Translations under genes and position numbers: made by a program
Assembly: GCF_041929145.1 (NCBI RefSeq)
Contig: NZ_JBHFNU010000005.1
Span: forward strand, 20,868 to 84,867
DNA from: Aerosakkonema sp. BLCC-F183
GTDB taxonomy: Bacteria > Cyanobacteriota > Cyanobacteriia > Cyanobacteriales > Aerosakkonemataceae
Length of the DNA: 64,000 bases
Direction of reading: 5' to 3'
Part shown: one piece after another, positions 2,748-61,331 of the stretch
How positions within the stretch are numbered: position 1 is the first letter of the stretch
Layout: every line of letters begins with the position of its first letter
Notes under the pieces: generated by a model
The model's database searches: none
Told to the model about the DNA's origin: nothing
The model's input: the letters and a program-made list of their open reading frames with translations, nothing else

Positions 2748-3505
2748 CCCGACGCACTAGCTATTGTTAAAGCATCTAAACTGCCATCGCTGATGAGACG
2801 CCCATCTTCCATATAGACAATGCGATCGGCAATATCCAAAATGCGGTTATCGTGAGTAACTAATAAAATTGTACAACCTTGCTCTTTCGCTAATTTTTGC
2901 ATCAATTCTACCACATCTCGTCCCGATTTTTTATCGAGAGCGGCAGTAGGTTCATCTGCTAGTACAATTTTCGGTTTACCTACCAAAGCGCGAGCAATTG
3001 CTACCCGTTGTTTTTGTCCTCCCGATAAGTCATCTGGATAGTAATTGATGCGATTTCCCAATCCGACTGCTGACAGCATTTCTTTAGCGCGATCGTTCAT
3101 TTCTGCTGGTGGAATTCCCCGCTGCACTTCCAATCCCATTCGCACATTTTGTAGCGCCGTTAAACTCCCGTGCAAATTGTGAGCTTGGAAAATATAACCG
3201 TTATGGCGTCGCGCTTCTGTTAATTGTTTTTCTTTAGCACCGCAAAGTTCTTTTCCTAACACCTTCAAACTGCCCTCTTGTGCAGAACGCAATCCACCGA
3301 CTAAAGTTAGGAGGGTAGTTTTTCCGGAACCGGATGGCCCAGTCATAATGATGATTTCACCTATATTTATCTGCAAGTTAATATCAAATAATGCTTGCTT
3401 CCGGAGTTGACCTTTACCGAAGTAATGATTGAGGTTGACGACAGAAATAACGGCGTCCGAACTCGAATTACTTTGCATAGCCCCTATTAACTCTGTAGCT
3501 TTCAT
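2744..3505 (-). CDS. devA: DevA-like ABC transporter ATP-binding subunit
   Basis: Walker A GPSGSGKTTLL; ABC signature LSGGQKQRVAIARAL; Walker B IVLADEPTAALD. Last gene of a devB-devC-devA order on the minus strand. Confidence 0.85.
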   Translation of the reverse strand: MKATELIGAMQSNSSSDAVISVVNLNHYFGKGQLRKQALFDINLQINIGEIIIMTGPSGSGKTTLLTLVGGLRSAQEGSLKVLGKELCGAKEKQLTEARRHNGYIFQAHNLHGSLTALQNVRMGLEVQRGIPPAEMNDRAKEMLSAVGLGNRINYYPDDLSGGQKQRVAIARALVGKPKIVLADEPTAALDKKSGRDVVELMQKLAKEQGCTILLVTHDNRILDIADRIVYMEDGRLISDGSLDALTIASASG

Positions 3506-3506
3506 A

Positions 3507-3548
3507 CTTATCTGTGTTTATCTGTGTTTATCTGCGGTCATCTGTGGT
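3507..3548. repeat. Decamer tandem repeat (TTATCTGTGT x2 plus two degenerate units) immediately upstream of the devA start codon
   Basis: Read directly in the devC-devA intergenic spacer; a 9-bp inverted repeat CTGCCGATA…TATCGGCAG lies just beyond at ~3566-3603. Confidence 0.7.
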
Positions 3549-3585
3549 TAAAAATATTCCAGACACAGCTGCCGATAATTTCTCT

Positions 3586-4761
3586 CTAGAACATATCGGC
3601 AGGATCGGCTGATTGTAATTTGCTTGTAGCGATCGCACCGGAAATCGCACACATAATAATAGTTAAAGACAAAACCATAATTGCGCGAAACAAAGTCATG
3701 TAAATCGGTAAATTTGTGGCATTGCGAGCTAAATTATAAAGTCCCAAAGGTACGATCAGTCCCGGTATGAAACCCAGAACTGCCAAAATGATAGCTTCTT
3801 CAAAAATCACGCCTAGCAAGTAGGAATTGTGGTAACCCATTGCCTTGAAAGTAGCGTATTCCTTGATATGGGCATTTACATCAGTGGAAAGAACTTGATA
3901 AACGATAATTACACCGACGATAAAACCCATCGCTACACCCATACCGAAAATAAAGCCGATCGGACTTCCGGTTTTCCAATAATTTTCTTCAAATTTGATG
4001 AATTCTTCGATGGTTAGCACTTTCACATCTTCGGGTAGGTAAGCTTTTAATGCCGCCACCACCTGAGTTGAATCTGCACCAGGTTCGAGATAAATTAAAC
4101 CCAGACTGATACTACCAGCTTGTCTTTTCGGGAATAATCTTAAAAAATTCTCATCGCTAGAAACCAGAGTGCCATCAGCACCAAAAGAAGCCCCCAATTT
4201 GAATAAGCCACCGATCGTAATAGTTCTCCTATCTACTTCCGTGGTAACTTCCCTACCCGCTTCCAGTTGGGCAAAAACCTCTTTGTAATCGCCTCTTGCA
4301 CCTCTGTCAAACAGGAAAGTATCCGGTAGCCGAATTTTATCGAGTTGGGCGTTAATTTCGGGAATGTTTAAAGCAGGCTGTTCGGGATTAAAACCAATCA
4401 CTTGTACAGTCGTCTTTTTGCGCGTCTGAGGATTCTTCCAAGACACGGTGTTGATATACATGGCTTCGGCAGATTTCACTCCCGGAACATCGGAAGCTTG
4501 GTAGAGTCGCCGCCGCGACAAGGTAGATAAACTCTGAGAGTTCCGCGCTTGGGGACTCATCAGAATAATATCTGCCTGTATAGCGCGGTTGAGGCGCGTG
4601 TTACTGTCGTACAGCGCATTTTGAAATCCCAATTGCATAAACATCAGGACATCGGCAAAGGCAATTCCCGATAAAGCCACCAAGAGGCGGCTTCTGTGAC
4701 GGCTGAGTTGCAACCATCCCAGAGGTGTACGTCGCCGCAGTTCTTGAATAAGTGCAATCAT
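3586..4761 (-). CDS. devC: DevC-like ABC transporter permease (FtsX/MacB-type)
   Basis: 391 aa with an N-terminal TM, a large periplasmic domain and C-terminal FtsX-like TM helices; start overlaps the devB stop by 4 nt. Confidence 0.8.
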   Translation of the reverse strand: MIALIQELRRRTPLGWLQLSRHRSRLLVALSGIAFADVLMFMQLGFQNALYDSNTRLNRAIQADIILMSPQARNSQSLSTLSRRRLYQASDVPGVKSAEAMYINTVSWKNPQTRKKTTVQVIGFNPEQPALNIPEINAQLDKIRLPDTFLFDRGARGDYKEVFAQLEAGREVTTEVDRRTITIGGLFKLGASFGADGTLVSSDENFLRLFPKRQAGSISLGLIYLEPGADSTQVVAALKAYLPEDVKVLTIEEFIKFEENYWKTGSPIGFIFGMGVAMGFIVGVIIVYQVLSTDVNAHIKEYATFKAMGYHNSYLLGVIFEEAIILAVLGFIPGLIVPLGLYNLARNATNLPIYMTLFRAIMVLSLTIIMCAISGAIATSKLQSADPADMF

Positions 4762-6287: not shown

Positions 6288-6436
6288 GGAAGTCAAAAGT
6301 CAAAAGTCAAAATATTAATTCCCCCGCGACCCCGCGACCCCACGACCCCGCTTCCCCACTCTCCCTCTTCTTTTTGACTTTTGAATGCATGACTTTTGAC
6401 TTTTTCTAACCCCTAACCCCTAACCCCTAACCCCTA
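6288..6436. repeat. Composite STRR-like repeat element, copy A: (AGTCAAA)n – AATATTAATTC – C-rich heptamers – inverted GTCAAAAG arm – (TAACCCC)4
   Basis: Read directly; it shares the GTCAAAAGTCAAAAG, AATATTAATTC and CCCCCACT-type modules with the copies at 14090, 24284 and 27671. Confidence 0.8.
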
Positions 6437-12045: not shown

Positions 12046-12789
12046 TCAACGGGTATCTTCCGAAGGTGGTACTGCTTGCGGACAAGTTTTGTGATTGACA
12101 TCGCAACTGAAAATATAGGTTTTCTGCCAGTTTAAAGGTATCTCCAGCAAATCCCGCGTACCTGTTAGTCCCTGTCCGATAAAAAGTAAGAGAGCAAAAC
12201 TGTTCAAAATTATATGAAAAGTTCGCCAGCGATTCGATTTATCTTTATAGATATCTTGCACAATGGCTAAAGAAAAAATCATCAGTAATGTGGCAGTAAT
12301 GCCGATGTAGTAATGAGACCAGTACCATTCATTCGTGCGACGAAAAACTCCGTCCTGACAACCGAGAAGGACTATACCCATCCCGGTTAAAGTCGCAAAA
12401 ACTCCGCGCCAGATTTTCTGCTTTGCGAGGTAGAGCAATACGAGGGCGGCGATCGTATCCAAAAACATCAGCAGGATAAAGGCAACTTGCAAAGGAGCTT
12501 TAGTCCAGGTGCGATCGCTCAAAATATGTTCGACAATATGGTAAGCTAACCCCACCAAAGTCAACCCCACAACCCAACCAGTCAGCCAGCGACCCATTTT
12601 GATGTGTTCTGGGCCAACATAGGAGGGAATTTTACTTTTGTCTTTGGCAGCAGTTTGCAAGCGACGCACGCGGGTCTGCCATGCAAAGTTTACCACTGTG
12701 CCAATCAGGGGAAAGACTAGCACGACTGCGATCGCCGGATGAATAAGAGCCAGAAAATCTTGGAATTCCATAACACACCCAGGAGTCAA
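12046..12789 (-). CDS. Integral membrane protein of unknown function (~6 TM)
   Basis: Hydrophobic segments throughout, with His-containing helices; no motif recognized. Confidence 0.5.
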   Translation of the reverse strand: MTPGCVMEFQDFLALIHPAIAVVLVFPLIGTVVNFAWQTRVRRLQTAAKDKSKIPSYVGPEHIKMGRWLTGWVVGLTLVGLAYHIVEHILSDRTWTKAPLQVAFILLMFLDTIAALVLLYLAKQKIWRGVFATLTGMGIVLLGCQDGVFRRTNEWYWSHYYIGITATLLMIFSLAIVQDIYKDKSNRWRTFHIILNSFALLLFIGQGLTGTRDLLEIPLNWQKTYIFSCDVNHKTCPQAVPPSEDTR

Positions 12790-13078
12790 AAGTCAAAAGT
12801 CATACATTCAAAAATCCTATAAGCGTCAGGCATTCAACTACTTCCGATCTGGTCGGTTACTTCTGCTGTACTGCGCTAGCCACCCAAAGTAGCATAGTTG
12901 AAAGTGGTTAACAAATAACTAATTACCAATGATTAATGGCTAACGACTAATGTAAAAATTCTTCATCTAATTATTAAGTCTCTGCATCAAACAACAACAA
13001 AATTAATGTTTTTTTTGGCATTTATGTGGGCAATCTAGAAATAGACGGGTAATTCAGCCCTAGCCGGAGCAAAATAAT

Positions 13079-14074
13079 ATGGACGCTAACGAACTACTCA
13101 GACGTTATGCAGCAGGAGAAAGAGATTTTAGTGGAGCTAATTTAATTGGAGCTAACCTAGAAAGCGCCCAACTCGTGGGAGCTAACTTTTCCGGTGCATA
13201 TCTAGCAGCAACCAACCTCAGCCGCGCACATCTAACGGGGGCAAATCTTTCCGGAGCATTTTTGCACCGCGCCGATCTAAGATTTGCGAAGCTAAACGAA
13301 GCAATATTAACAAACGCAGACTTAACAAAAGCTAATCTTCAAGGAGCCTTCATAGTTAAATCCGTGCTGACGGGAGCCAAACTGAGTGGCGCGATAATGA
13401 CAGCAGTAAACTTGCGTTTGGCAAATTTACAGGGCGTTAATCTGTGTGGCGCAGATTTGCGGGGCATTAATTTTCGTTCTGCCAATCTAGTAGATGCTAA
13501 CTTAAATTGGGCTAACCTCACGGGAGCCAGATTGAGCGGAGCCCAGTTGCGGGGAGCATTACTCAACGGCATCAAACTCAGTAAAGCTTTCCTCAATGGT
13601 GTAGACCTCAATAGCGTAGACTTGGATGGAGTCAATCTCAGCGAATCGAAACTGAGCGGAGCTAACCTCAGCGGAGCCAACCTTTCTGCAACTAACTTCA
13701 GCAATGCCCAGCTGCGCGTATCGATATTGGCCAGGACAAACCTTCACGCATCCAACCTCAGCGGTGCAAACCTTACCAAAGCCGACTTATGCGAAGCAAA
13801 TTTAAGTAAGGCAGACCTCTCATCCGCCGATATGAGCAAGGCAGATTTAACAGGCGCTAATCTAAATATGGCCGATCTCAGCGATGCCGACTTGAGCAAT
13901 GCCTGTTTGCGACAAGCTTACCTCTGGGGAGCTAACTTTAATGTGGCAGCAATGCGCGGCGCGGATTTGACTGGAGCTAGCTTGCGCGGAGCGTACATCG
14001 AAGGCACAGAAGCACACTGGCCGCAGGCAATTCTGACAGGAGCGACTATGCCTGATGGCAGTCGCCACAACTAA
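13079..14074 (+). CDS. Pentapeptide-repeat protein, paralog 2
   Basis: 331 aa, ~80% identical to 7539..8528, including a similar 5' leader (CAATCTA(T/G)AAATAGAC). Confidence 0.9.
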   Translation: MDANELLRRYAAGERDFSGANLIGANLESAQLVGANFSGAYLAATNLSRAHLTGANLSGAFLHRADLRFAKLNEAILTNADLTKANLQGAFIVKSVLTGAKLSGAIMTAVNLRLANLQGVNLCGADLRGINFRSANLVDANLNWANLTGARLSGAQLRGALLNGIKLSKAFLNGVDLNSVDLDGVNLSESKLSGANLSGANLSATNFSNAQLRVSILARTNLHASNLSGANLTKADLCEANLSKADLSSADMSKADLTGANLNMADLSDADLSNACLRQAYLWGANFNVAAMRGADLTGASLRGAYIEGTEAHWPQAILTGATMPDGSRHN

Positions 14075-14089
14075 GTTAGGGGCTAGAAA

Positions 14090-14195
14090 AACTTAAAAGT
14101 TAAAAGTCAAAAAAAGGGACTAGGGGCTAGAGGTTAGGGATTAGGGAAGAGGGAGAGGGAAGAGGGAAAAATATTAATTCTGTCCTCTGCCCCAT
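14090..14195. repeat. Composite STRR-like repeat element, copy B
   Basis: AAAAGTTAAAAGTCAAAAAAAGGG…GGGAAGAGGGAGAGGGAAGAGGGAAAAATATTAATTCTGTCCTCTGCCCC. Confidence 0.8.
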
Positions 14196-14287
14196 ATCCA
14201 ATTGGCAAAAAATTGGCTTTTCCACCACAAGTACCGGAGAAGCCACTTATTTGTGTTGGATTCATTTGAGAATTGCTGTAGGAGCTA

Positions 14288-23667: not shown

Positions 23668-24285
23668 ATGCTGACAGCTTTTACCGCCGGTTTATTGCTG
23701 ATTACAGTTTCGGAATTAGGGGATAAAACGTTTTTTATCGCTGCAATATTGGCAATGCGTCATTCGCGACGGCTGGTATTTGCGGGCGCGATCGCAGCTT
23801 TAGCAGCAATGACGATATTGTCTGTTTTAGTCGGACAAACTGTGTCTCTTTTACCGAAACAGTACGTTCAATTCGCGGAAATAGCTTTGTTTGTCGGTTT
23901 TGGGCTAAAGTTATTGTACGAAGCCAGTAAAATGTCAGGCAAAGCCGAATGCGACGAAGCAGAAGAAGCATTAGCGGCAGTTAAAGAAGCAGAAGCGAAA
24001 ATGCCTCGCCGCCAAAGCAAATTAGCGGTTTTAGTCAAAGCTTTTACAATGACTTTTGTGGCGGAATGGGGCGATCGCACTCAATTTGCCACCATCACCC
24101 TAGCCGCCTCCTACAATGCGGTCGGAGTAACCACAGGTGCTATTTTAGGTCATGCCATTTGTGCGGCGATCGCAGTCATGGGCGGACGCTTCATCGCCCA
24201 GCGAATTTCCGAACGCACTATGACTGCTGTGGGAGGTTTGTTATTTTTGATCTTCGCCGCCGTAGCTTGGATAGAAGCTGTTTAG
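23668..24285 (+). CDS. GDT1/UPF0016-family (Mnx/TMEM165-like) putative Mn2+/Ca2+ cation transporter
   Basis: Two signature motifs, ELGDKTFFIAAILA and EWGDRTQFATITLAA, each within a 3-TM repeat. The ORF caller starts at 23605, but the MLTAF start at 23668 is more plausible. Confidence 0.8.
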   Translation: MLTAFTAGLLLITVSELGDKTFFIAAILAMRHSRRLVFAGAIAALAAMTILSVLVGQTVSLLPKQYVQFAEIALFVGFGLKLLYEASKMSGKAECDEAEEALAAVKEAEAKMPRRQSKLAVLVKAFTMTFVAEWGDRTQFATITLAASYNAVGVTTGAILGHAICAAIAVMGGRFIAQRISERTMTAVGGLLFLIFAAVAWIEAV

Positions 24286-24430
24286 GGGCTAGGGCTAGGG
24301 CGTCGGGGCTAGGGCGTCGGGGCTAGGGGAAGAGGGAAGAGGGGAAATATTAATTCTTCCGCTCCCCCACTCCCCCGCTCCCCCACTCCCCCACTCCCCC
24401 ACTCCCCCACTCCCCCACTCCCCACTTTCT
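24284..24430. repeat. Composite STRR-like repeat element, copy C
   Basis: (GGGCTAGGGCGTCGG)2 GGGAAGAGGGAAGAGGGG AAATATTAATTCTTCC (GCTCCCCCACT/CCCCCACT)x8. Confidence 0.8.
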
Positions 24431-26525: not shown

Positions 26526-27671
26526 TTGCAAAGGTTCTCGGTTATCGACCGGATTTCCTACCCAAGTCCAGTTTGTGCTTATCTCTCACTAGGAGCCAGA
26601 GGAAGTGTGTCTCCGCTGCAAGGAGTTCTTATGAGTCCCTCTCCGAATCAGTTCCCCCAGTCTTCTAGCGGTTCCGAACAAGCTAAGGCCGAATTACCGG
26701 TCGTTCGTAAGCCCAATCCACCCAAGCCCCCTGTCACCCAAGCGGCTACCCCTCCTACTCCCCCGGCTACAGCACCTACACCACCGGCGGCTGCCTCCAC
26801 GACCCAGGCTCCTACCCCTGCGATCGAGAAAAGCGATGCCAACATTTCTGGTGAGGTCATGGCGACTGAAACCGATAAGGATGGTGGGCGGCGGCAAGAG
26901 CCCATTCCGGCTCCCAGCGAACCGATGCAATATCGGGCCATTGGCTTAGTACGGGGCAAATATAGCCCCAGTGCAGAGCAATTTACGCGCGGTCTGTTAC
27001 TAGCCTCTGATGGGCAGGAGATCGATTCTGTGCTGTTAGGTCGCGTAATGAGTCTGGTGAAGAATCACCTAGATTTAGAAACCGAACACCTGTGGGTAGT
27101 TTATCCGCGAACGCGACAAAATGATGATGCTTTACACCTTCAAATTGTGGGAGTTTGGGAACCAGAAAACCTTGACAAAAGTTTGTCTTCCACTGACGAG
27201 ACATCGGCAAGCGATGTAACCGAAGCATCGAGATCGAGCAATTTAGAAGCTGAGAGTTCCCCCGTTGAAGATGGTTATTTTTCGATTCGCGGTGAGGTAG
27301 TTTATCAATCTCACGACGAACAAAAAATCATCGTCAAGATTAAGCAAGCACCGCGCAAGGAAGATGAAAAGCCCAAATTTTTTAAGCTCACACTCAAAGG
27401 TGTTTTGGAAAGAAAGGCTGTGGGATACTTCTGGGAATTCCATATCCAGCGACTGGCTAACGACCTCCTAATTCAGGAGGCCAAAGATATCGCATCCTTG
27501 CGTCCGAGTAAGCCCAGGAAACCTTTTAAAGGTAAAAAACCGGGTGGTAAAAAGTTTGGTAAATATCCAGGGCCAGGGGCTGGCAGCAATCGTCCAGTAC
27601 CCGCAGGCGCTAAACCTCCCACCGAAAAGCCAATTCCTCGACCGACGAAACGTCAGCAACCGAGTACCTAA
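26526..27671 (+). CDS. Hypothetical protein with a Pro/Thr-rich N-terminal region and a basic Lys/Pro-rich C-terminal tail
   Basis: Long ORF; the true start is probably internal (MSPSPNQF at ~26631); no domain recognized. Confidence 0.45.
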   Translation: MQRFSVIDRISYPSPVCAYLSLGARGSVSPLQGVLMSPSPNQFPQSSSGSEQAKAELPVVRKPNPPKPPVTQAATPPTPPATAPTPPAAASTTQAPTPAIEKSDANISGEVMATETDKDGGRRQEPIPAPSEPMQYRAIGLVRGKYSPSAEQFTRGLLLASDGQEIDSVLLGRVMSLVKNHLDLETEHLWVVYPRTRQNDDALHLQIVGVWEPENLDKSLSSTDETSASDVTEASRSSNLEAESSPVEDGYFSIRGEVVYQSHDEQKIIVKIKQAPRKEDEKPKFFKLTLKGVLERKAVGYFWEFHIQRLANDLLIQEAKDIASLRPSKPRKPFKGKKPGGKKFGKYPGPGAGSNRPVPAGAKPPTEKPIPRPTKRQQPST

Positions 27672-27847
27672 AAAAGTCAAAAGTCAAAAAAGGGAATAGG
27701 GGTTAGGGCGTCGGGGCTAGGGGAAGAGGGAAGAGGGAAGAGGGAAGAGGGAAGAGGGAAGAGGGAAATATTAATTCTTCTGCTCCCCTGCCCCCCTGCT
27801 CCCCTGCCCCCCTGCTCTCCTGCTCCCCCACTCCCCCACTCCCCCAC
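27671..27847. repeat. Composite STRR-like repeat element, copy D
   Basis: AAAAGTCAAAAGTCAAAAAAGGG…(GGGAAGA)x6 AATATTAATTCTTCTG (CTCCCCTGCCCCCCTG)x2 …CCCCCACTCCCCCACTCCCCCAC. Confidence 0.8.
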
Positions 27848-39064: not shown

Positions 39065-42000
39065 TTAAAATTGCATAAAGGAGGTAGATTCAATTACACC
39101 TTCAGCTTGATGAACGATCGATCGCAATTTATCTACCATCTCTGACTCAACATCTTGCCACAACCCGCGCTGATGCGCTTCTAACAATCTTTCTGCCATA
39201 TCTCGCAACACCCAAGGATTTTTTTCTTGGATAAATGCCTGCACGGATGGCTCAAATAAATACGCCTCTGCCACTCCTCTATACATAAAATCTTCCACAC
39301 AGTTAGCTGTAGCATCGTAGGCAAATAAATAATCCACCGTCGCCGACATTTCAAACGCACCTTTGTAACCGTGGCGCATCACTCCCGCTATCCACTTGGG
39401 ATTGACTACGCGAGAACGATATACTCGCGCAATTTCCGATCGCAACTGTCTGACTTTGGGATTTTCAGGCAGAGAATTATCGCCAAAATAAGTTTGGGGA
39501 TTTTTTCCAGTTAAGGCGCGAACTGCTGCTGTTAACCCACCCTGAAATTGATAGTAATCATCCGAATCTAGCAAATCGTGTTCGCGGTTGTCTTGATTGT
39601 GCAGAACTATTTGCATCTGCCGCAGACGCTGTTCAAATGCTTCTGGTGCTGCAATACCGAATTTGGGATTTTGGATTTGGGTTTTGGGATTTTCCTGTGC
39701 CTTTGTTTCCCTATGACTGGATGTGTAAGCATAGCTACTCCAATTAATATAAGCACGCGCTAAATCTTGCTCATCTTTCCAGTTTTGCGCTTCAATTAAA
39801 CCTTGCAGACCGGCACCGTAGGCACCGGGTTTAGAACCAAAAATGCGATAGTGCGATCGCATTTCTGCCTGTTCTTCATTTAACCCCGCAGCCAGCCAGA
39901 ATTGCCTTTCTTGCTTCACTTGCGCCGCCAAAGGATTGTCTTCCGGCGGTTCGTTCAACGCGGCTACCGCCGCTATTGCGCGATCGAATAAATCGATTAA
40001 ATTCGGAAAAGCATCGCGGAAAAAACCCGAAATTCGCAGCGTTACATCCACACGCGGACGCCCCAAAACCGCAACTGGCAATATCTCAAAATCTACTACC
40101 CGCCGCGATGGGCCATCCCACACAGGTCGCACCCCCAGCAATGCCAACGCCTGCGCCACATCATCGCCGCCAGTCCGCATCGTTGCAGTTCCCCATACGG
40201 ATAATCCCAGTGTTTTAGGATACTCGCCATTTGACTGAGTATATTGCTCAATCAAAGTTTCAGCCGCTTTTCTGCCAATATTCCAGGCTGTTTCCGTCGG
40301 CAGGCTGCGAATATCAACCGAGTAAAAATTGCGACCAGTAGGCAGTACTTCCGGGCGTCCCCGCGTAGGTGCACCAGATGGGCCGCTGGGTACAAATCGA
40401 CCGTCCAAACCGCGCAACAATTGGGTGATTTCTTGTTGAGTTTGTTGCAGTGCGGGTAGGAGGTAAGTGCTTATCCAATCTAACTCGCGCTTGATTAATT
40501 TTCCGCTTTCAATTATCAGTTGTTCTTTATCGGTTGCTATTAGCTGTTCTACTAAATTAGCTGCGTATTCTTCCAATAACTCGATCGCATCCCCAGCAGT
40601 TTGATATTTTGTGGTGTCTTGATATTTTGTGGTGTCTTGATATTTTGTGGGCTCTTGATATTTTGTGGGCTCTTGATATTTTGTGGGCTCTTGATATTTT
40701 GTAGGGTCTTGATATTTTGTAGGGTCTTGATATTTTGTAGGGTCTTGATATTTTGTGGGCTCTTGATATTTTGTGGGCTCTTGATATCTTGTGGGCTCTT
40801 GATATTTTGTAGGCTCTTGATATTTTGTAGGCTCTTGATATCTTGTAGGCTCTTGATATCTTGTGGGGTGGGCATCTTGCCCGCCTTCAATTAATGATGG
40901 GGAATTTAATGACAGGCGAGACGCCTGTCCCACAAGAGGTAGGGATGGATCTGCTGTTAAAGGGTCAAAATCCCAACCCCAATCTTTAGCGATCGCACGA
41001 GTTAAACCAAGGCGATTAGTACCGGGATGACGGGCTATAGCTACAATCAAATCCCTTAGCTGTCGCCCCTGCGGACATTGCCCGAAAATATGTAGTCCGT
41101 CCCGAATTTGTGCTTCTTTCAATTCGCAAAGATAACCATCAATTAAAGACAGAAGCGAACTGTCGAAATTTTCAGGAAAAAATTCTTTGTTTTGATTTTT
41201 TACTTTTAAATTTTGACTTACTTCTAAATCTTGCTGTAAATTTTCTTGCGATACCAACTGTGCGATGCGATCGGCTATCATCGGTAAACGCTTTGGGTCT
41301 AAACTTTGCGCCTCATAATATTCATCGATCGAACTTTCTAATTGTTGCAAAGGGCCATAAAGTTCCGCCCGCGTCATCGGTGGCGTCAAGTGGTCGATAA
41401 TCACAGCTTGAGCGCGACGTTTAGCTTGAGAACCTTCACCCGGATCGTTGACAATAAACGGATAAAAATGTGGCATCGCACCTAATGCCACTTCCGGGTA
41501 ACAATTACTCGATAAAGCGACACTTTTACCGGGTAGCCATTCCAAATTGCCGTGCTTCCCTACATGAACGATCGCATCTGCTTGAAAATGTTGTCGCACC
41601 CAATAATAAAAAGCTAAATAAGCATGAGTGGGTTCTAAATCCGGGGCATGATAATTCAAACTGGGATCGATATCGTAACCTCGACTCGGTTGAATCCCCA
41701 CAAAAACATTACCTAACTGAATTCCCGAAATTGGAAATAGGAAATTACCCCTTTCGTCCCCCCCGTTGACGGGGGGGATTGAGGGGGGGTTCCGAATTCC
41801 CCAGCGATCGCATATCCCTTGCTGTACATCTTTTGGTAAACTTACAAAATACTCGTTATATTCTTCTAGCGATAATTGCTGCCAAATCTGTCGTAATTCG
41901 CGCCCTTCCGGATCGTTAGTCACCCCAGCAGTCAAGCGTGCAATCAACTCATCGCCCGTTTCAGGTAAATTTTCCAAATAATAACCAGCCGATTGCAACG

Positions 42001-43231
42001 CCTTCAGAATCTCTACACAACTAGCTGGAGTATCCAATCCCACCCCATTAGCGAGACGCCCATCGCGATTGGGATAATTAGCTAAAATTAGAGCAATTTT
42101 GCGCTCGGAAACGGGAGTTTTACGCAGACGCACCCAGTTTAAAGCTAAATCCGCTACAAAACCAATCCGATCTAATTGCGGTTCGTATCCCACCACATCA
42201 GTTTCCAATTGAGGATGGCGAGATTGCACTGCTTTAAATGAAACTGCTCGACTGATAATTCGCCCATCTACTTCCGGTAGCGCCACATTCATCGCCATGT
42301 CTCGCGGCGAAAGTCCTTTGTATCCAGATTCCCACTGTTCGACAGTACCGCTGCTAAAAATTACTTGCAATACAGGCACATCTAAATTTTCAATAGGGGA
42401 TGGCATTGTCAATCCCAAATCTGAAATGGAAAAGCTAGTTGTATTTAGTAAAATATCTATTTGTTCTGCATCTTTGGGCTGGCAATATTGCAACAGTTCT
42501 GCTTGCACATCAGGTTCTCGCAAAGAAGAGACAAATATTGGCACTGGTTGTAATTTCCGAGCGGATAAAGCTTGACAAAGCGCATCGATTACAGTTGTAT
42601 TTCCAGCTAAATAATGAGCGCGGTAAAATAATATTCCAACTTTAGCTATTGACAATTCTGCTTGTTTCCCATTTCCCATTTCCCAGCGATAAAGTCCCAC
42701 ACGGGGAACTTCTGCTGGTGGCGGCGGATTGTAGGTTTGAGCTAAGCACACATCGGCAACAAATTTAAGCGCGTTCACAAAATTTTGCACGCCGCCTTCG
42801 GTGAAATAGCGCCACAGCTGGTTAACTACTGTGAGGGAGACGGTGGAGCGATCGAATAAATGGGGATCTGGGCGATCGTCTCCCGGCATCACAATCAGCG
42901 TTTTCTGGGATTTTTCCACCGTTTCCCGCACTACTTCCAATCCATAAGACCAGTAGGAACGTCCTCCTAGCAGCCTGACGATAATTACCTCTGCTTGTGC
43001 AAGCACTTGTTCTGCATAAGTATCAATACTTAACTGTTGTTGCAACTGCAACAGATTCACCACCCGCAGCGCTGGGAATCCCTCCGGTAGGAAGCCGACT
43101 GCGGCGGCAAAGGTTTGGATATCCGTATCCGCAGCAGTTAGAAAAACGATGGGAGCAGGCGTTTGCTCCACAAAAATGACTCCTTCTTCCTGAAAATTCC
43201 ACCCTCCGGGGGTAGCAGCTAAACGATGCAA
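39065..43231 (-). CDS. cobN: Cobaltochelatase CobN subunit with an in-frame (PTKYQE)n hexapeptide-repeat insertion
   Basis: N-terminus MHRLAATPGGWNF…VFLTAADTDIQTFAAAV parallels CobN (…ILFLSAADTEL…); overall 1388 aa with a CobN/Mg-chelatase architecture; starts with TTG. ~16 copies of the 18-nt unit at 40601-40872 encode PT(K/R)YQ(E/D). Confidence 0.8.
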   Translation of the reverse strand: MHRLAATPGGWNFQEEGVIFVEQTPAPIVFLTAADTDIQTFAAAVGFLPEGFPALRVVNLLQLQQQLSIDTYAEQVLAQAEVIIVRLLGGRSYWSYGLEVVRETVEKSQKTLIVMPGDDRPDPHLFDRSTVSLTVVNQLWRYFTEGGVQNFVNALKFVADVCLAQTYNPPPPAEVPRVGLYRWEMGNGKQAELSIAKVGILFYRAHYLAGNTTVIDALCQALSARKLQPVPIFVSSLREPDVQAELLQYCQPKDAEQIDILLNTTSFSISDLGLTMPSPIENLDVPVLQVIFSSGTVEQWESGYKGLSPRDMAMNVALPEVDGRIISRAVSFKAVQSRHPQLETDVVGYEPQLDRIGFVADLALNWVRLRKTPVSERKIALILANYPNRDGRLANGVGLDTPASCVEILKALQSAGYYLENLPETGDELIARLTAGVTNDPEGRELRQIWQQLSLEEYNEYFVSLPKDVQQGICDRWGIRNPPSIPPVNGGDERGNFLFPISGIQLGNVFVGIQPSRGYDIDPSLNYHAPDLEPTHAYLAFYYWVRQHFQADAIVHVGKHGNLEWLPGKSVALSSNCYPEVALGAMPHFYPFIVNDPGEGSQAKRRAQAVIIDHLTPPMTRAELYGPLQQLESSIDEYYEAQSLDPKRLPMIADRIAQLVSQENLQQDLEVSQNLKVKNQNKEFFPENFDSSLLSLIDGYLCELKEAQIRDGLHIFGQCPQGRQLRDLIVAIARHPGTNRLGLTRAIAKDWGWDFDPLTADPSLPLVGQASRLSLNSPSLIEGGQDAHPTRYQEPTRYQEPTKYQEPTKYQEPTRYQEPTKYQEPTKYQDPTKYQDPTKYQDPTKYQEPTKYQEPTKYQEPTKYQDTTKYQDTTKYQTAGDAIELLEEYAANLVEQLIATDKEQLIIESGKLIKRELDWISTYLLPALQQTQQEITQLLRGLDGRFVPSGPSGAPTRGRPEVLPTGRNFYSVDIRSLPTETAWNIGRKAAETLIEQYTQSNGEYPKTLGLSVWGTATMRTGGDDVAQALALLGVRPVWDGPSRRVVDFEILPVAVLGRPRVDVTLRISGFFRDAFPNLIDLFDRAIAAVAALNEPPEDNPLAAQVKQERQFWLAAGLNEEQAEMRSHYRIFGSKPGAYGAGLQGLIEAQNWKDEQDLARAYINWSSYAYTSSHRETKAQENPKTQIQNPKFGIAAPEAFEQRLRQMQIVLHNQDNREHDLLDSDDYYQFQGGLTAAVRALTGKNPQTYFGDNSLPENPKVRQLRSEIARVYRSRVVNPKWIAGVMRHGYKGAFEMSATVDYLFAYDATANCVEDFMYRGVAEAYLFEPSVQAFIQEKNPWVLRDMAERLLEAHQRGLWQDVESEMVDKLRSIVHQAEGVIESTSFMQF
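40601..40872. repeat. 18-nt tandem repeat (TTGATATTTTGTGGGCTC and variants, ~15 copies) within cobN
   Basis: Read directly; the copy number is a multiple of 3 and preserves the frame; variant units are clustered (GTGTCT, GGCTCT, GGGTCT types). Confidence 0.9.
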
Positions 43232-47753: not shown

Positions 47754-47876
47754 ACAACTGACAACTAACAACTGACAACTGACAACTGACAACTAACAAC
47801 TGACAACTGACAACTGACAACTGACAACTGACAACTGACAACTGACAACTGACAACTGACAACTAACAACTGACAA
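47754..47876. repeat. STRR-like heptamer array (CAACTGA/CAACTAA)x17 abutting the nanE start codon
   Basis: Read directly; the array ends at …CAACTGACAA immediately before the ATG at 47877; it resembles cyanobacterial STRR3 (CAACAGT). Confidence 0.9.
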
Positions 47877-48563
47877 ATGACTGTTAATCAACAAAAAATA
47901 ACACAACTGCGCCATAGCTTGATTGTTTCCTGTCAGGCTCCCGCTGACTCGCCCCTACACGATCCTCTCGCGATCGCTGCAATGGCGCAAGCTGCTGTAC
48001 TCGGAGGCGCAGCCGCAGTAAGGATTGATACACCAAGTCATGTCAGCGCCGTGCGCCAGAAAGTAGAAGCACCGATTATCGGGCTTTGGAAACAGCAGAT
48101 ACGTGGATACGATGTATACATTACTCCTGAGTACCAACACGCGGAGGCGATCGCATCTGCCGGTGCAGATATCATCGCCATTGACGCTACCCCCAGAAAT
48201 CGACCGGGTAATGAAAGCTTGCATACCCTAATTGCACGCATTCACAAGGAATTGGGCAAGCCGGTGATGGCAGATGTAGATACCATTGAGGCAGCGATCG
48301 CCGCCGAAAAAGCCGGTGCCGATATTGTGGGTACAACGCTCTACGGCTACACCAACGACACAAAGCACCTCTCTCCCCCCGGCTTGGAACTCCTGGCCCA
48401 AATGGTAAAAAATTTGAACGTACCAGCCATTTGCGAAGGCGGCATTTCCTCACCCCAGATGGCTCAACAAGCCCTACAACTGGGAGCCTATGCAGTTGTG
48501 GTCGGCACTGATATCACCGGTATCGATTACAAGGTTTTAGCTTATCGCGCCGTTTTCCCTTGA
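47877..48563 (+). CDS. nanE: Putative N-acetylmannosamine-6-phosphate 2-epimerase
   Basis: LIVSCQA near the N-terminus, mid-protein IAIDAT, GTTLYGYT, and ICEGGI…VVVG match NanE conserved blocks; 228 aa. Confidence 0.7.
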   Translation: MTVNQQKITQLRHSLIVSCQAPADSPLHDPLAIAAMAQAAVLGGAAAVRIDTPSHVSAVRQKVEAPIIGLWKQQIRGYDVYITPEYQHAEAIASAGADIIAIDATPRNRPGNESLHTLIARIHKELGKPVMADVDTIEAAIAAEKAGADIVGTTLYGYTNDTKHLSPPGLELLAQMVKNLNVPAICEGGISSPQMAQQALQLGAYAVVVGTDITGIDYKVLAYRAVFP

Positions 48564-55978: not shown

Positions 55979-56686
55979 GTGAAAATATCTGTCACGCTCG
56001 AGCAGGCAATTTTAAATGATTGCTGGAATAAAATCGGTGTAGGCGGCGATCGATCGTGCAAACAACTCAAAACCTATATTCACTGCCGCAACTGCCCCGT
56101 TTATTCCGCTGCGGGGCGCGGCTTGCTGGAACGAGATGCACCAGAAGGCTACATTGATGAATGGACAGATTTATTTGCCCAAACTCAGCTTCCAGAAAGG
56201 TCATCTCAAAGCGAAAATACTAAAACTCAAGCGGTTATCATCTTTCGCTTGGGCGTAGAATGGCTAGCCCTGCCAGCTAACTTATTTAAAGAAGTTACGC
56301 CTCCCAGCGTCATCCACACCATACCGCACCGCACCAACAAAATATTACTGGGTATTGTGAACATTCGAGGCGAAATTCTTATGTGCATTTCCCTCAGCAA
56401 CCTCTTGGGTTTAGAAATCCCAGAAAAAAGCAAAAATTCTAAATCAAATACCGTTGTCCAAGAACGGATGGTAGTAGTTGAAAAAAATGAAGAACGTTGG
56501 GTTTTTAGCGTCGATGAAGTTTCCAGCATTCAACGCTTCCATCCCCATCAATTTCGCCCCGCACCAGCCGTCATCACCCAATCCAATGAATCTTATACCA
56601 AAGCGGTGATAAATTGGCAAAACAAAAAAGTTAGTTATTTGGATGATGAATTGCTGTTTTACAACATAAACAGGAGGATAACGTGA
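55979..56686 (+). CDS. CheW-like protein with an N-terminal Cys-rich (C-x12-C-x9-C-x2-C) extension
   Basis: CWNKIGVGGDRSCKQLKTYIHCRNCP followed by a CheW fold (…IFRLGVEWLALPANLFKEV…ILLGIVNIRGEIL…). Confidence 0.7.
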   Translation: MKISVTLEQAILNDCWNKIGVGGDRSCKQLKTYIHCRNCPVYSAAGRGLLERDAPEGYIDEWTDLFAQTQLPERSSQSENTKTQAVIIFRLGVEWLALPANLFKEVTPPSVIHTIPHRTNKILLGIVNIRGEILMCISLSNLLGLEIPEKSKNSKSNTVVQERMVVVEKNEERWVFSVDEVSSIQRFHPHQFRPAPAVITQSNESYTKAVINWQNKKVSYLDDELLFYNINRRIT

Positions 56687-59600
56687 CAGATATAAGCGGT
56701 TACTCCATGCTGGATTTGTTCCGGATGGAAGTGGAAGCCCAGGCAGCAATATTAAACGAAAATTTGTTGGCGCTAGAAAACCAACCTTCCTCTGCAAAAG
56801 AACTGGAAGCCTTAATGCGGGCTGCTCATTCGATTAAAGGAGCAGCTCGCATTGTCGAAATTGATGCCGCCGTTAACCTGGCTCACATCATGGAAGACTG
56901 CTTCGTCGCCGCACAAAGCCAACGCATTACGTTGACTCCGGATGACATCGACGTACTGCTGCGCGGCGTCGATATGCTCGCAAATATTAGCCGCGTAGAA
57001 AACGGAGGTTTAGAGGGTTTCTTAGAGGAAAATGAATCGGAAATAGCAGCGACAAGGGCAGAAATTGCTGCCATTTTGACGCCGGGAGCCGAAAACAAGG
57101 GGAGAACGGGAGAACGGGAAAGTCAAAAGTCAAAAGTCAAAAGTCAAAATTCTTCCTCTTCCCTCTCCCCTCCCCCTTCTCCCTCTCCTTCTTCCTCTAC
57201 TCCTTCTCCGTCTTCCCCCACTCCCCCGCCCCCTGTCTCCCCCACACTCCCTGAGCCTCCCGAAGCACCAGCTGCTCCCGAAATGGAAGAAGTTCCCAGT
57301 ATTGGCAATAGCTCGATGCTGGAATTATTTCGTTTGGAAGTAGACGCACAGACAAAGATATTAAATGATGGTTTGCTAGCCCTAGAAAGCCAACCGGATT
57401 CTTTGAGAGAATTGGAAGCGCTGATGCGAGCTGCCCATTCGATTAAAGGAGCTGCTCGCATTGTGGCGATCGATGCGGCGGTTAACCTGGCTCACGTCAT
57501 GGAAGACTGCTTTGTGGAGGCGCAGAAACAAACGATTACCCTGGCAGCAGATAGTATTGATATTCTGTTGCGAGGCGTCGATCTGATCCAAAATATTAGC
57601 CAACTGGAGCCAGCAGAATTGGGCGTTTGGCTAAAAGAAAATCGCCAAGAAATTGAAACCACAAGACAAGAAATTAGCGCTATCCTGACACCTGGATCTG
57701 CACCAGTTCCGCGCAAAAAAGCAGAGCCGGCAAATGGACAATCGGATGCGGTCAAACCAAAAGCACAAGAGCAAACCGCCTCCATCGATGCTAAAACTGA
57801 AACCCAGATAGACAGTTCCGCACAGCCAGAGCAACAAACGCAATCAGCTGCCTTAGTTCCTCAAAGTGCCTCTGCAAAGGAAACTAGCGTCACCAAACAA
57901 ATAGTTAAGAACCCCCCTACACCTATTGGGCCTGCCAAAGAGTCAAAAGCAGCGCCAATACCCACCAAAGATACAAACAAAGATCGGGTGGTGATGGTAA
58001 GCGCAGAAAACCTCAATCGTATCATGGGGTTAGCGGGTGAAACTCTGATCGAGGCGAGTTGGTTACAGCCTTATGCCGATTCTTTGATGATGCTTAAGAA
58101 ACGGCAACAGGAATTATCTAAAGTTCTCGAAAATTTACAGGAAGCTTGCGGAAAAAGCCACGTCGATGGACAAACCGAAAATATTCTGAAAGTGGCTCGC
58201 GATAAAGAGCGGGAATGTCGGGAAATTCTGCTGGAGCGCATCCACACCCTAGAATTATATGCCGGTCGCACGGCTAACTTGAGCGATCGCCTCTACAGGG
58301 AAGTAATTGCCTCCCATATGCGTCCCTTCGCGGACGGCGTGCAAAGCTTTCCTCGGATGATGCGGGATCTCGCCAGAAAACTGGGCAAACAAGTTAACTT
58401 TGAGATCGTGGGCAAAGCTACACCAGTCGATCGAGATATTCTCAAAAAATTGGAAGCTCCCCTCACCCACATTTTACGGAATGCCCTCGATCACGGTCTG
58501 GAAATGCCTGACGATCGCATCGCAGTTGGCAAACCAACAGAAGGAACCATCAAACTGGAAGCCACCCACCGCAGCGGGATGTTAGCCGTCACCATTTCTG
58601 ATGATGGCAAGGGAATGAACCTAGAGCAATTACGCGAAAAAATCGTCAGAAAGAAGCTGGCTAGCCCAGAGATGGCAGCTAAGTTTACCGAAAGCGAGTT
58701 ATTAGAATTTATCTTTTTGCCAGGGTTTTCCACCGCCGCTCAAGTCACGGAAATTTCCGGACGCGGTGTTGGTTTGGATATCGCCAAGAGCATGGCCCAC
58801 GAAGTCGGCGGCACCGTGCGGGCAAGTTCGGTACCCGGAAAAGGGATGAGTTTTCACTTCCAATTGCCCCTCACTCTGTCCGTTATTCGCACTTTATTAG
58901 TAGAAATATCCGGCGAACCTTACGCTTTTCCCCTAGCGCGGATCGAACAGTTGGTCATGCTGGATAAATCAGAAATAGCCGTGGCGGAAAATCGCCAATA
59001 TTTCACCCTCAATGGTGAAAATATCGGACTGATAGCTGCCTATCAAGTTTTGGAATTGCCGCCATCTTCATTCAAGTCAGATGCGCTACCAGTTGTGGTA
59101 ATTGGCGATCAATCAAACCGCTTTGGTATGGTGGTAGATAAATTCTTGGGCGAACGCGACTTAGTAGTCCGACCTTTAGATCCCCGCCTGGGCAAAGTCC
59201 AAGATATCGGTGCTGCTGCCCTGATGGGAGATGGTTCTCCGATTTTAATTGTGGATGTGATAGATTTAGTACGCTCCATTGATAACCTGCTCAACACTAA
59301 AGACAAAGAATTGCAGCAGGTAAGCGATGATGATGGGGATGGCAAATTACTAGAAACCAAGAAGCGTATCCTAGTAGTTGATGACTCGATTACCGTGCGG
59401 GAAATGGAACGAAAGCTCTTGGAAAACAAAGGTTATATGGTTGAAGTTGCAGTCGATGGTATGGATGGTTGGAATGCAGTTCGCACCAATCACTATGACT
59501 TGGTTGTGAGCGACATTGATATGCCGCGTATGAATGGAATTGAATTTGTCAGCCAGATCAAAAATCATCCGAAGCTGAATTCAATTCCCGTAATTATTGT

Positions 59601-59730
59601 TTCTTACAGAGACAAAGAAGAACATCGAATTCAAGGACTGGAAGCTGGGGCAGATTATTATTTAACCAAGAGTAGTTTCCAGGATGATAGCTTCTTCAAA
59701 GCCGTCATAGATTTGATTGGCGAACCTTAA
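56683..59730 (+). CDS. CheA-like hybrid histidine kinase: Hpt – low-complexity linker – Hpt – dimerization/HATPase_c – CheW – REC (WspE/PixL-like)
   Basis: Two ~75%-identical Hpt domains (MLDLFRMEVEAQAAILNENLLALENQP…HSIKGAARIV / MLELFRLEVDAQTKILNDGLLALESQP…HSIKGAARIV); HATPase (LTHILRNALDHGLE…DDGKGMN); CheW-like domain; C-terminal receiver (ILVVDDSITVREM…VVSDIDMPRMNG). Confidence 0.85.
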   Translation: MTDISGYSMLDLFRMEVEAQAAILNENLLALENQPSSAKELEALMRAAHSIKGAARIVEIDAAVNLAHIMEDCFVAAQSQRITLTPDDIDVLLRGVDMLANISRVENGGLEGFLEENESEIAATRAEIAAILTPGAENKGRTGERESQKSKVKSQNSSSSLSPPPSPSPSSSTPSPSSPTPPPPVSPTLPEPPEAPAAPEMEEVPSIGNSSMLELFRLEVDAQTKILNDGLLALESQPDSLRELEALMRAAHSIKGAARIVAIDAAVNLAHVMEDCFVEAQKQTITLAADSIDILLRGVDLIQNISQLEPAELGVWLKENRQEIETTRQEISAILTPGSAPVPRKKAEPANGQSDAVKPKAQEQTASIDAKTETQIDSSAQPEQQTQSAALVPQSASAKETSVTKQIVKNPPTPIGPAKESKAAPIPTKDTNKDRVVMVSAENLNRIMGLAGETLIEASWLQPYADSLMMLKKRQQELSKVLENLQEACGKSHVDGQTENILKVARDKERECREILLERIHTLELYAGRTANLSDRLYREVIASHMRPFADGVQSFPRMMRDLARKLGKQVNFEIVGKATPVDRDILKKLEAPLTHILRNALDHGLEMPDDRIAVGKPTEGTIKLEATHRSGMLAVTISDDGKGMNLEQLREKIVRKKLASPEMAAKFTESELLEFIFLPGFSTAAQVTEISGRGVGLDIAKSMAHEVGGTVRASSVPGKGMSFHFQLPLTLSVIRTLLVEISGEPYAFPLARIEQLVMLDKSEIAVAENRQYFTLNGENIGLIAAYQVLELPPSSFKSDALPVVVIGDQSNRFGMVVDKFLGERDLVVRPLDPRLGKVQDIGAAALMGDGSPILIVDVIDLVRSIDNLLNTKDKELQQVSDDDGDGKLLETKKRILVVDDSITVREMERKLLENKGYMVEVAVDGMDGWNAVRTNHYDLVVSDIDMPRMNGIEFVSQIKNHPKLNSIPVIIVSYRDKEEHRIQGLEAGADYYLTKSSFQDDSFFKAVIDLIGEP
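57121..57260. repeat. Partial composite STRR-like element ((AGTCAAA)x4 + CT-rich tract) embedded in-frame in cheA, encoding the Ser/Pro linker between the two Hpt domains
   Basis: AGTCAAAAGTCAAAAGTCAAAAGTCAAAATTCTTCCTCTTCCC…CCCCCACTCCCCCGCCCCC matches the arms of the intergenic composite elements (shares AATTCTTCC and CCCCCACT); translated as ESQKSKVKSQNSSSSLSPPPSPSPSSSTPSPSSPTPPPP. Confidence 0.7.
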
Positions 59731-59849: not shown

Positions 59850-61331
59850 ATGTTTGCTAAGTGGAAATTGAGAGATCGCATATTTTTAGGCTATTCAGTT
59901 CCTGGAATAGTATTTGCTATATTTAGCGCCACAATTTTTGTGAATTCATATAAAACAACGGGCATATTCAAAGATGTGAACTATGCCCAAAATGTCTTGA
60001 TAGAAAGCTATGAGTCTGTTGTGAGTATTTCGATGATGGGTAGGCAAGTTCGCGGCTATCTCCTTGTTAAAAATAGTGATGGTGCTTTGGATAAGTATGA
60101 AAAAGAAAGACAGCGTTTTATCAACAGCACTGCACGTCTAGAACAGCTAATAAAAGACCAGGGACAGAAAGCAAAAATTAAACAAATATCTCAACTGGGA
60201 GAACAATTTCAAGATTTGTCAACGCGAACTTTTCGCATGGTAGATGATGGCAAACAGCAAGAAGCTGTAGTTATATTCCTCAGAGAGTCTAAACAAATTG
60301 TTGATGAGATCGATCGATTGAATCAACAATTTAAGCAAACACAGGAAGAATTTATCACCAGCCAGGTCGAACGTACTACCAAGACCCTTGAGTTACTGGA
60401 AATTGCATCTATAGTGATACCCATTTTTGGATTGGCTGTAATTATTTGGTTCGCTTTACTAATTACAAAGCAAATATCTGGTGCGGGTGGATTGGTTGAC
60501 CAAGTGCAGGACTCCGGTATTAAAGTAACGACTTCAGCTACAGAAATTACCGCCTCTAGCAAACAATTGGAAGCGATGCTTACAGAACAGCTTGCCTCTA
60601 CAAATGAGGTTGTAGCCGCTGCTAAAGAGATTGCCGCCACTTCTAGAGAACTGGTCAAAACGATCGAGGATGTTGCGGCTAAGTCCGTAGCTACTACTTA
60701 TGCAGCAACCGACAGTCAAAAATCTCTGACTCACATGGAAGCAACCATGAGTCAGTTAGCTTCGGCGACGAGTTCTATTTCCGGTAGATTGGAGACAATT
60801 ACAGAAAAAGCGAATAAAATCAATGGTATTGTTGTCACTATTACCAAAGTAGCCGATCAAACCAATTTGCTTTCCCTGAACGCTTCTATTGAAGCCGAGA
60901 AAGCTGGAGAATATGGAGCGGGTTTTTCTGTGGTAGCCAGAGAAATTCGGCGGCTGGCGGATCAATCTGCTGTCGCTACTCTGGATATCGAGCAGATGAT
61001 TAAAGAAATGCAATCGGCGGTTGCAAGTGGTGTAATGGAAATGGATAAGTTCACCAAAGAAATGGTTAGCGGCGTCCAAGATGTCCGCAATATCAGCACC
61101 CAAATCGTAGATATTATCGAGAAAGTGCAGAGCTTGACACCCCGTTTTCAAATGGTGAGCGAAGGTATGGAAGCTCAGTCAGAAGCGGCTGGACAAATTA
61201 GTGAGTCGATGAGCCAGTTAAGCCAAGCATCTGGGGAAACCACTTCTTCTGTGCGCGAACTCAAGGGAGTAATTGAGCGCTTGAACGGTGCTGCAATATC
61301 CTTACAAAAAGCAACCCACGGTCTCAAATAA
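59850..61331 (+). CDS. Methyl-accepting chemotaxis protein (second MCP, four-helix-bundle sensor type)
   Basis: N-terminal TM, ~150-aa sensor, second TM, signaling domain [37 protein letters not shown]. Confidence 0.85.

Follow-up and report, generated by a model that had tools for sequence, protein, structure and literature searches.

The 64,000-nt stretch of DNA analysed here (the window; Aerosakkonema sp. BLCC-F183, contig NZ_JBHFNU010000005.1, positions 20,868 to 84,867) contains a gene for a WspE-like hybrid CheA-CheY kinase, the 1015-residue product of which is 100% identical to Aerosakkonema sp. BLCC-F183 WP_374820764.1. Pfam matches (PF01627 Hpt in two stretches, E = 2.5e-24; PF02518 HATPase_c; PF01584 CheW; PF00072 Response_reg) give the domain order Hpt-linker-Hpt-linker-kinase core-CheW-REC (REC, receiver domain). 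The kinase has no Pfam match to a P2 domain, nor to the dimerisation-domain model PF02895, which matches the orthologues P0093 and P0096. Short tandem repeats, of kinds that recur between genes elsewhere in the window, make up the DNA that separates the two Hpt domains. We consider it likely, with a probability of roughly 0.72, that an ancestral tandem-Hpt kinase of the ACF/Wsp type (ACF, alternative cellular functions) had its disordered spacer rebuilt from the STRR-type repeats of the genome (STRR, short tandemly repeated repetitive sequences).

Anatomy of the interdomain linker

The linker consists of four side-by-side arrays with non-triplet periods, as identified by Tandem Repeats Finder (TRF; Table 1). 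The earlier note on this DNA described an AGTCAAA array followed by a CT-rich tract; TRF confirms this arrangement, resolving the array as a perfect (AAAGTCA)4.4, and the in-frame Ser/Pro-rich translation ESQKSKVKSQNSSSSLSPPPSPSPSSS given there is correct. Degenerate TCTTCCC/TCTCCC units occupy 57150-57213, and CCCCCACTCCCCC is found at 57215-57227. The predicted peptide of the linker is Lys-rich first and then Ser/Pro-rich. In an AlphaFold model built from a 30-sequence alignment, Hpt1 and Hpt2 are modelled as helical bundles with a predicted local distance difference test score (pLDDT) above 90. The block-mean pLDDT is 71 at residues 131-140 and 40-62 at residues 141-210, and no secondary structure is predicted for residues 132-209.

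Table 1. Features of the kinase locus, repeat clusters and neighbouring genes (positions in the window)
Feature	Position	Strand	Basis or remarks
WspE-like hybrid CheA-CheY kinase gene	56683..59730	+	1015 aa; open reading frame (ORF) and Pfam
Hpt1, aa 1-136	56683..57090	+	hidden Markov model (HMM) boundaries; phospho-His codon 49 (56827-56829)
Interdomain linker, aa 137-203, 201 nt	57091..57291	+	TRF arrays; predicted disordered
(GGGAGAAC)2.5, perfect 8-nt array, G-rich block	57100..57119	+	TRF
(AAAGTCA)4.4, perfect heptamer array	57119..57149	+	TRF; translates to SQKSKVKSQ
Homopyrimidine tract, 93% C/T, ~102 nt, ends in TCCCCCACTCCCCCGC	57150..57252	+	Ser/Pro-rich translation
Hpt2, aa 204-339	57292..57699	+	HMM boundaries; phospho-His codon 252 (57436-57438)
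Intergenic composite, most collinear with linker	6288..6436	+	TRF
Isolated (AGTCAAA)2.7 array	12784..12802	+	TRF
Intergenic composite: (AAAAGTY)n, G-rich heptamers, AATATTAATTC, C-rich	14088..14200	+	
Intergenic composite: (GGGCTAG/GGGCGTC)n, (GGGAAGA)n, AATATTAATTC, (CTCCCCCA)7.8	24283..24424	+	
Intergenic composite: (AAAAGTC)2.6, G-rich, (GGGAAGA)6.7, AATATTAATTC, (CTGCTCCC)8, (CTCCCCCA)3	27669..27847	+	
CheW gene	52210		
CheR-TPR gene	52694		
4HB-HAMP methyl-accepting chemotaxis protein (MCP) gene	54168		
CheW gene directly before kinase	55979-56686		
CHASE3 MCP gene after kinase	59850-61331		
CheB gene	61466		
REC-PAS regulator gene	start ~62553		runs past window end

The pyrimidine tract is the sole 100-nt stretch in the window with at least 93% pyrimidine or purine. 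All 14 of its Ser codons are TCY, compared with 37% in the genes of the window (P = 9e-7), and 12 of its 14 Pro codons are CCY, compared with 50% (P = 0.007). A demand for a Ser/Pro peptide would not by itself give this bias, which reflects a constraint on the DNA and not on the protein. The tract is repeat DNA that chances to be open in the kinase frame.

The modules of the linker recur in intergenic clusters. With at most one mismatch allowed for it, AGTCAAAAGTCAAA occurs ten times in the window against 0.09 expected, and CCCCCACTCCCCC occurs ten times against 0.01 expected; apart from the copies in the linker, all of them lie within intergenic repeat clusters. Exact matches of 15-24 nt to the linker are likewise confined to these clusters. 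In AGTCAAA arrays, the longest exact matches in the rest of the window are 24 nt (6290-6313), 19 nt (12784) and 18 nt (27672), and the array at 12784 is a fifth one, missing from the list in the earlier note. The pyrimidine tract has exact plus-strand matches of 16 nt at 24363 and 14 nt at 27824, and it matches the minus strand of GGGAAGA arrays over 15 nt at 14151 and 12 nt at 24331 and 27725. The units are thus over-represented, tandem, 7-8 nt long and mostly intergenic, with four or five clusters in the window, as is characteristic of STRRs.

The composite at 6288 comprises (AAGTCAA)3.3, AATATTAATTC, (CCCCGCGA)n, (TTTTGAC)n and (CTAACCC)4.4, and its RNA fold has a z score of -4.5. The exact 11-mer AATATTAATTC is present at 6311, 14170, 24346 and 27767, always on the plus strand and between G-rich and C-rich arms; it is possibly a small dispersed element that lies within heptamer arrays. 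Composites start exactly at the stop codons of upstream plus-strand genes (24283-24285, 27669-27671 and 14072-14112): the stop TAG is the first unit of (TAGGGGC)n at 24283, and the stop TAA abuts (AAAAGTC)n at 27669. Such positions agree with published work that places cyanobacterial heptamers at the 3' ends of genes. The over-represented GGGGA(T/C)T heptamer repeats of Nostoc PCC 7120 often begin at stop codons or no more than 50 bp away, and 32% of the heptamer repeats of that strain are inside genes (PMC4692102).

Distribution among orthologous kinases

The linker is common to three independent assemblies, those of BLCC-F183, BLCC-F2 and A. funiforme FACHB-1375, and is therefore not the assembly artefact that the earlier note had allowed for. 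The (AGTCAAA)4.4 array is identical in the DNA of BLCC-F183 and A. funiforme (locus L081), the genes of which are 95.2% identical overall. Nowhere in the gene do Aerosakkonema strains differ more than in the linker; among 100-nt stretches, divergence peaks at its C-rich end (57183-57283), where 23 of 103 columns differ, in-frame indels included. A partial protein of Planktothrix sp. FACHB-1355 starts within the linker, which implies that its contig ends there. The nearest relatives (72-75% identity) lack the linker. Outside the genus, the closest loci are L082 (83% identity in the conserved part) and L083 (78%), which are sister to Aerosakkonema in the kinase tree; their linkers are P/A-rich, mixed at third codon positions and free of heptamers. 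On this comparison, the repeat-built linker is shown to be specific to the Aerosakkonema lineage.

The Hpt domains themselves are much older. Hpt1 and Hpt2 are 68% identical over 136 residues (BLASTP, E = 5e-65), keep the phospho-accepting His in an identical motif, AAHSIKGAAR, and both match the solved CheA P1 structures 1tqg, 2ld6 and 1i5n. Their DNA identity is 75.9% across the best-matching 294 nt (blastn) and 69% across the full 408 nt; the two tandem domains reported in the earlier note are thus present, but its figure of ~75% holds for the core only. We compared the best 120 homologues (55-75% identity; Oscillatoriales, Nostocales and Leptolyngbyales), of which 118 carry a pair of Hpt domains and the other two carry four, with interdomain linkers of 23-151 residues that are mutually unalignable. 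At the loci compared, the number of Hpt domains is three in Desulfobacterales relatives and one in a paralogous class. Across the orthologues, the Hpt2 His and its HS(I/V)KGxAR motif are invariant (118/118), and the Hpt1 His is kept in 86 of 118 and lost in the other 32 (to N, Y, R, K or Q, among others). Four-fold degenerate sites are 43% identical between Hpt1 and Hpt2, 40-45% identical between orthologous Hpt domains (70-81% amino-acid identity) and 88-90% identical between Aerosakkonema strains. The pair within the protein is therefore as far apart at these sites as distant orthologues are, and the duplication is far older than the perfect repeats. As judged from these homologues, the tandem architecture is shown to be ancestral to the whole cyanobacterial family and unconnected with the repeats. 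In a survey of CheAs, 18% carry two or more Hpt domains, and multi-Hpt CheAs with a C-terminal receiver are documented for the ACF and Tfp (type IV pili) classes (PMC10782961). The tandem Hpt arrangement is a documented class feature and as such does not change what is known of CheA signalling.

Non-triplet arrays are also present in this gene in other lineages. A TRF scan of 72 orthologous genes for arrays with a period that is not a multiple of three identified 15 such arrays in ten genes: nine in the Hpt1-Hpt2 linker (six genes) and six after Hpt2 (five genes), 415-496 nt further, with one gene containing both kinds. None lay in a folded domain, and the density of non-triplet arrays was 0.66 per kb versus 0.03 per kb. 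It appears from these positions that the orthologous kinases of other filamentous cyanobacteria have repeatedly acquired repeats in their two disordered linkers. Sharing of 11-mers between the linker and its surroundings was clear only for L037 (26/152) and weaker for L042 (12/230), owing to the short length of the orthologous loci (~15 kb each).

The clearest parallel is the linker of Stigonema ocellatum (L042), which consists of (GCAGGGGGG)n, CTTGTCTCCCTTGTC and (CCCCACT)17.6 and translates to GAGGAGG...SPLPTPHSPLPTP. Its modules are common to intergenic composites of the same locus, which contain (CTTGTCCCC)3.6, (AGGGGGATG)7.8 and (GTCAAAA)4.3. An MCP gene at this locus (2806-4416) is flanked by inverted composite copies, CACCCCCGCCCCTTTGGGTTC(GTCAAAA)4... 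and its reverse complement (2670-2790 and 4419-4660), and looks like a repeat-bounded cassette.

In metagenome-assembled genomes (MAGs) of Stigonema sp., Iningainema and Scytonema, contigs begin in C-rich sequence immediately before Hpt2. Breaks of short-read assemblies inside the linker, in C-rich sequence, are seen at the MAG contigs L022 (1-20), L041 (1-15) and L048 (1-30) and for protein P0123. Repeats in disordered linkers explain why assemblies break there so frequently, and a count of repeat-built linkers taken from complete genes is for this reason probably biased low. In the kinase tree, L082 and L083 come between Aerosakkonema and the Stigonema group; as perfect arrays are also young, it is more economical, if unproven, to assume that separate lineages gained their repeats independently.

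Origin of the linker

If the spacer was rebuilt from genomic repeats, it would be an intrinsically disordered tether, almost unconstrained in sequence and length and required only to be free of stop codons and to measure a multiple of 3 nt. In Aerosakkonema, the material would have been an 8-mer G-rich array, AGTCAAA heptamers and C/T-rich heptamer/octamer arrays. Most probably, an intergenic STRR composite would have been the donor in ectopic recombination or gene conversion, or the seed for slippage, and the recipient an older linker, presumably Lys-rich and then Pro-rich; short homologies (CAAAAG and CCCCCA) may have aided entry. The arrays would have been kept because their plus-strand units have no stop in any frame and their total length is a multiple of three, and the in-frame peptide would do no more than join two phosphotransfer domains flexibly. 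The copy number is stable across strains, and the C-rich end drifts by in-frame indels. Nothing suggests that the linker sequence itself would have a function beyond that of an unconstrained disordered spacer. The proposal in the earlier note that a repeat was domesticated as a linker is borne out in so far as the linker is lineage-specific, shares four non-triplet arrays with intergenic DNA and shows the pyrimidine bias, but the term 'exapted' goes beyond this evidence.

Several points weigh against this account. No terminal inverted or direct repeats and no target-site duplication were found bounding the linker, so the description of the repeat as 'mobile' overreaches; the repeat copies have modules in common but no end-to-end sequence, unlike MITEs (miniature inverted-repeat transposable elements) or small dispersed repeats. 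The modules are shared with all four of the intergenic copies that had been said to have the same structure, but the order in the linker, GGGG-(AAGTCAA)n-AAT..TTC-C-rich, is collinear only with the copy at 6288: AGTCAAA precedes the G-rich block in the copies at 14090 and 27671 and is missing from that at 24284. The linker is also without the AATATTAATTC core that each of the four intergenic composites has. By shared 11-mers, the linker scores 42/191, only within the top ~2% of windows, so that the case for shared repeats rests on the long exact matches. In addition, the linkers of P0002 and P0003 contain Lys and are then Pro-rich, AAA/AAG and CCN codons could have seeded slippage in place, and proline coding could have produced some of the C-rich similarity (CCCCCAC...) by convergence. 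Finally, it is from variability that we infer that the linker behaves as a neutral flexible spacer.

Many of these points are what would be expected of an origin in place, by slippage within an ancestral Lys/Pro-rich linker under a shared heptamer bias acting on similar seeds and with no transfer of DNA, which we regard as possible though clearly the less probable account. Slippage of simple sequence repeats generates low-complexity or disordered linkers, and these resemble the present one in being repeat-derived, compositionally biased and fast-evolving spacers with in-frame indels. The linkers of P0002 and P0003 are at the same position, the DNA of L082 carries CCAAAAGCA repeats and CCCCCACCGCC, and both the missing core and the lack of insertion scars favour such an origin. 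Slippage-made linkers differ from this one, however, in that the units here are non-triplet, one array gives a peptide period of seven residues and the sequence is common to non-coding arrays of the same genome. Against slippage in place stand the four adjacent array types, collinear with the copy at 6288 and joined by a common junction, AAGTCAAAAT..TTC, and the use of TCY for all 14 Ser codons. AGTCAAA is also found in intergenic arrays of the distant genus Stigonema, which is easier to reconcile with a specific unit that was propagated than with random slippage.

A more far-reaching version of repeat entry is that STRR composites are actively propagated and that the disordered linkers of WspE-like kinases are recurrent landing pads for them. 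Copying would then proceed by ectopic conversion or templated insertion, the repeat set of each genome overwriting its own linker, in lineages comprising Aerosakkonema, Stigonema/Scytonema/Iningainema, Stenomitos and Leptolyngbyaceae. On the present data we hold this to be doubtful; if true, the kinase family would be a natural comparative system for dating the spread of STRRs and studying its mechanism.

Rebuilding from genomic repeats, the account we prefer, makes the linker a clear example of a process that is already known and not a new mechanism. STRR-type repeats of filamentous cyanobacteria likewise have tandem units of 7-8 nt in multi-unit clusters that are mostly intergenic and near stop codons; in contrast to those of Nostoc, the repeats here form, in four array types, a whole interdomain linker and recur at the orthologous linker. 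The unit AGTCAAA is presumably not among the canonical STRR1-3, and CCCCACT is close to STRR1, CCCCA(A/G)T. Small dispersed repeats or MITE-like elements are reportedly embedded in Nostoc heptamer arrays, as Elhai et al. are said to have described in 2008; the AATATTAATTC core between heptamer arrays of the four intergenic composites resembles that description, and the kinase linker is without the core. What is new, to a modest degree, is that repeats were taken up time and again by the same orthologous linkers. The locus provides a clean, datable case of non-coding simple-repeat DNA read through as protein, and the array positions in the 72 orthologues show where such repeats are tolerated in proteins.

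A functional nucleic-acid element within the gene, such as a hairpin, G-quadruplex, i-motif or triplex at which transcription or translation would pause between the domains, seems very unlikely. The G-rich and C-rich arms of the linker are partly complementary, its intergenic relatives sit exactly at stop codons in the manner of 3'-end elements, and G-rich heptamers of Nostoc form G-quadruplexes in vitro (PMC4692102). The predicted RNA fold of the linker, however, is no improvement on that of shuffled sequence (z = -0.05), and an mRNA hairpin of the two arms was rejected on this basis. G-runs in the G-rich block number only three and are short, no such element is present in the nearest orthologues, and no part of the gene evolves faster than the C-rich end. 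No terminator or known RNA family was identified in the linker, Rfam giving only miRNA-precursor matches far below threshold.

The linker could also be imagined as a phase-variable contingency locus in which gain or loss of AGTCAAA units toggles the product between the kinase with both Hpt domains and a form that is truncated or retains Hpt2 only. One or two units more or fewer would bring in stops at residues 186-225, and there is an in-frame ATG (M201) just upstream of Hpt2. We nonetheless consider such switching highly improbable: the array has merely four units, its copy number of 4.4 is the same, with perfect units, in three strains with genes ~5% apart (a small sample), no promoter-like site was found in the linker and no Shine-Dalgarno-like sequence was seen by eye before M201, and a metagenome scan for variants of 2-6 units gave 0 matches.

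Least probable of all is a recent, repeat-mediated duplication of the Hpt domain, as proposed in the earlier note, or an artefact of assembly; three independent assemblies speak against the latter. The identity between Hpt1 and Hpt2 within one protein ranges from 32 to 79% across orthologues with a mean of 44%, so that the value of 67% in the query is at the high end, as in its clade, and a weakly resolved neighbour-joining tree of 236 Hpt domains, with very short internal branches, places the Hpt1 of the query clade among Hpt2 sequences. Nevertheless, all of the best 120 homologues have at least two Hpt domains and unrelated linkers, the very outcome that the earlier note had named as speaking against duplication, and synonymous sites between Hpt1 and Hpt2 are saturated; a recent duplication was rejected on these two counts. 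The query Hpt1 is, moreover, nearer to the Hpt1 of P0002 and P0003 (72-75% identity) than to its own Hpt2, and the linkers of these relatives are unrelated to that of the query. The placement in the tree would fit slow divergence as well as an old gene conversion between Hpt1 and Hpt2; such a conversion may have occurred and would predate the split from P0002 and P0003. As a separate observation, the Hpt pairs of P0063 and P0078 look recently homogenised.

The chemosensory cluster and other repeats

The kinase lies in a Wsp-type neighbourhood (CheW, CheR, MCP, CheW, CheA-Y and CheB; Table 1), and L081 and L082 also have a neighbourhood of this type. Judged from its genes and domains, the cluster is ACF/Wsp-like and its CheA belongs to the ACF/Wsp-like class; the JGI label for orthologues of the kinase is WspE. 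The multi-Hpt CheAs of the ACF (Wsp-like) and Tfp classes are similar in having several N-terminal Hpt domains, some of them without the His, no P2 domain and a C-terminal receiver, and in the content of the gene cluster. The strict Wsp system differs in its output, WspR being a REC-GGDEF protein: the regulator 3' of the kinase is a REC-PAS protein, and GGDEF is absent from the record of the complete 498-residue REC-PAS product of A. funiforme. A literature search on WspE and Hpt in cyanobacteria returned nothing relevant.

The composition of the cluster varies between Aerosakkonema strains. In A. funiforme (L081, 7543-9144 and 13055-13351), a 98-residue ORF is found where the CHASE3 MCP lies 3' of the kinase in the window, and an additional TarH/4HB MCP precedes CheW. 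The CheW encoded 5' of the kinase has an N-terminal extension of ~85 residues with a Cys motif, CWNKIGVGGDRSC...HCRNCP, which has no Pfam match and is kept in Stigonema (L042, 4667-5392); it could be a metal or redox site.

Two further repeats were observed in the window. An (ACAACTG)18.3 array (47754-47881) is intergenic and directly upstream of an ORF at 47877, and an 18-nt repeat (40601-40867; 14.8 copies, 95% matches) runs in frame within a 1388-residue minus-strand ORF (39065-43231).

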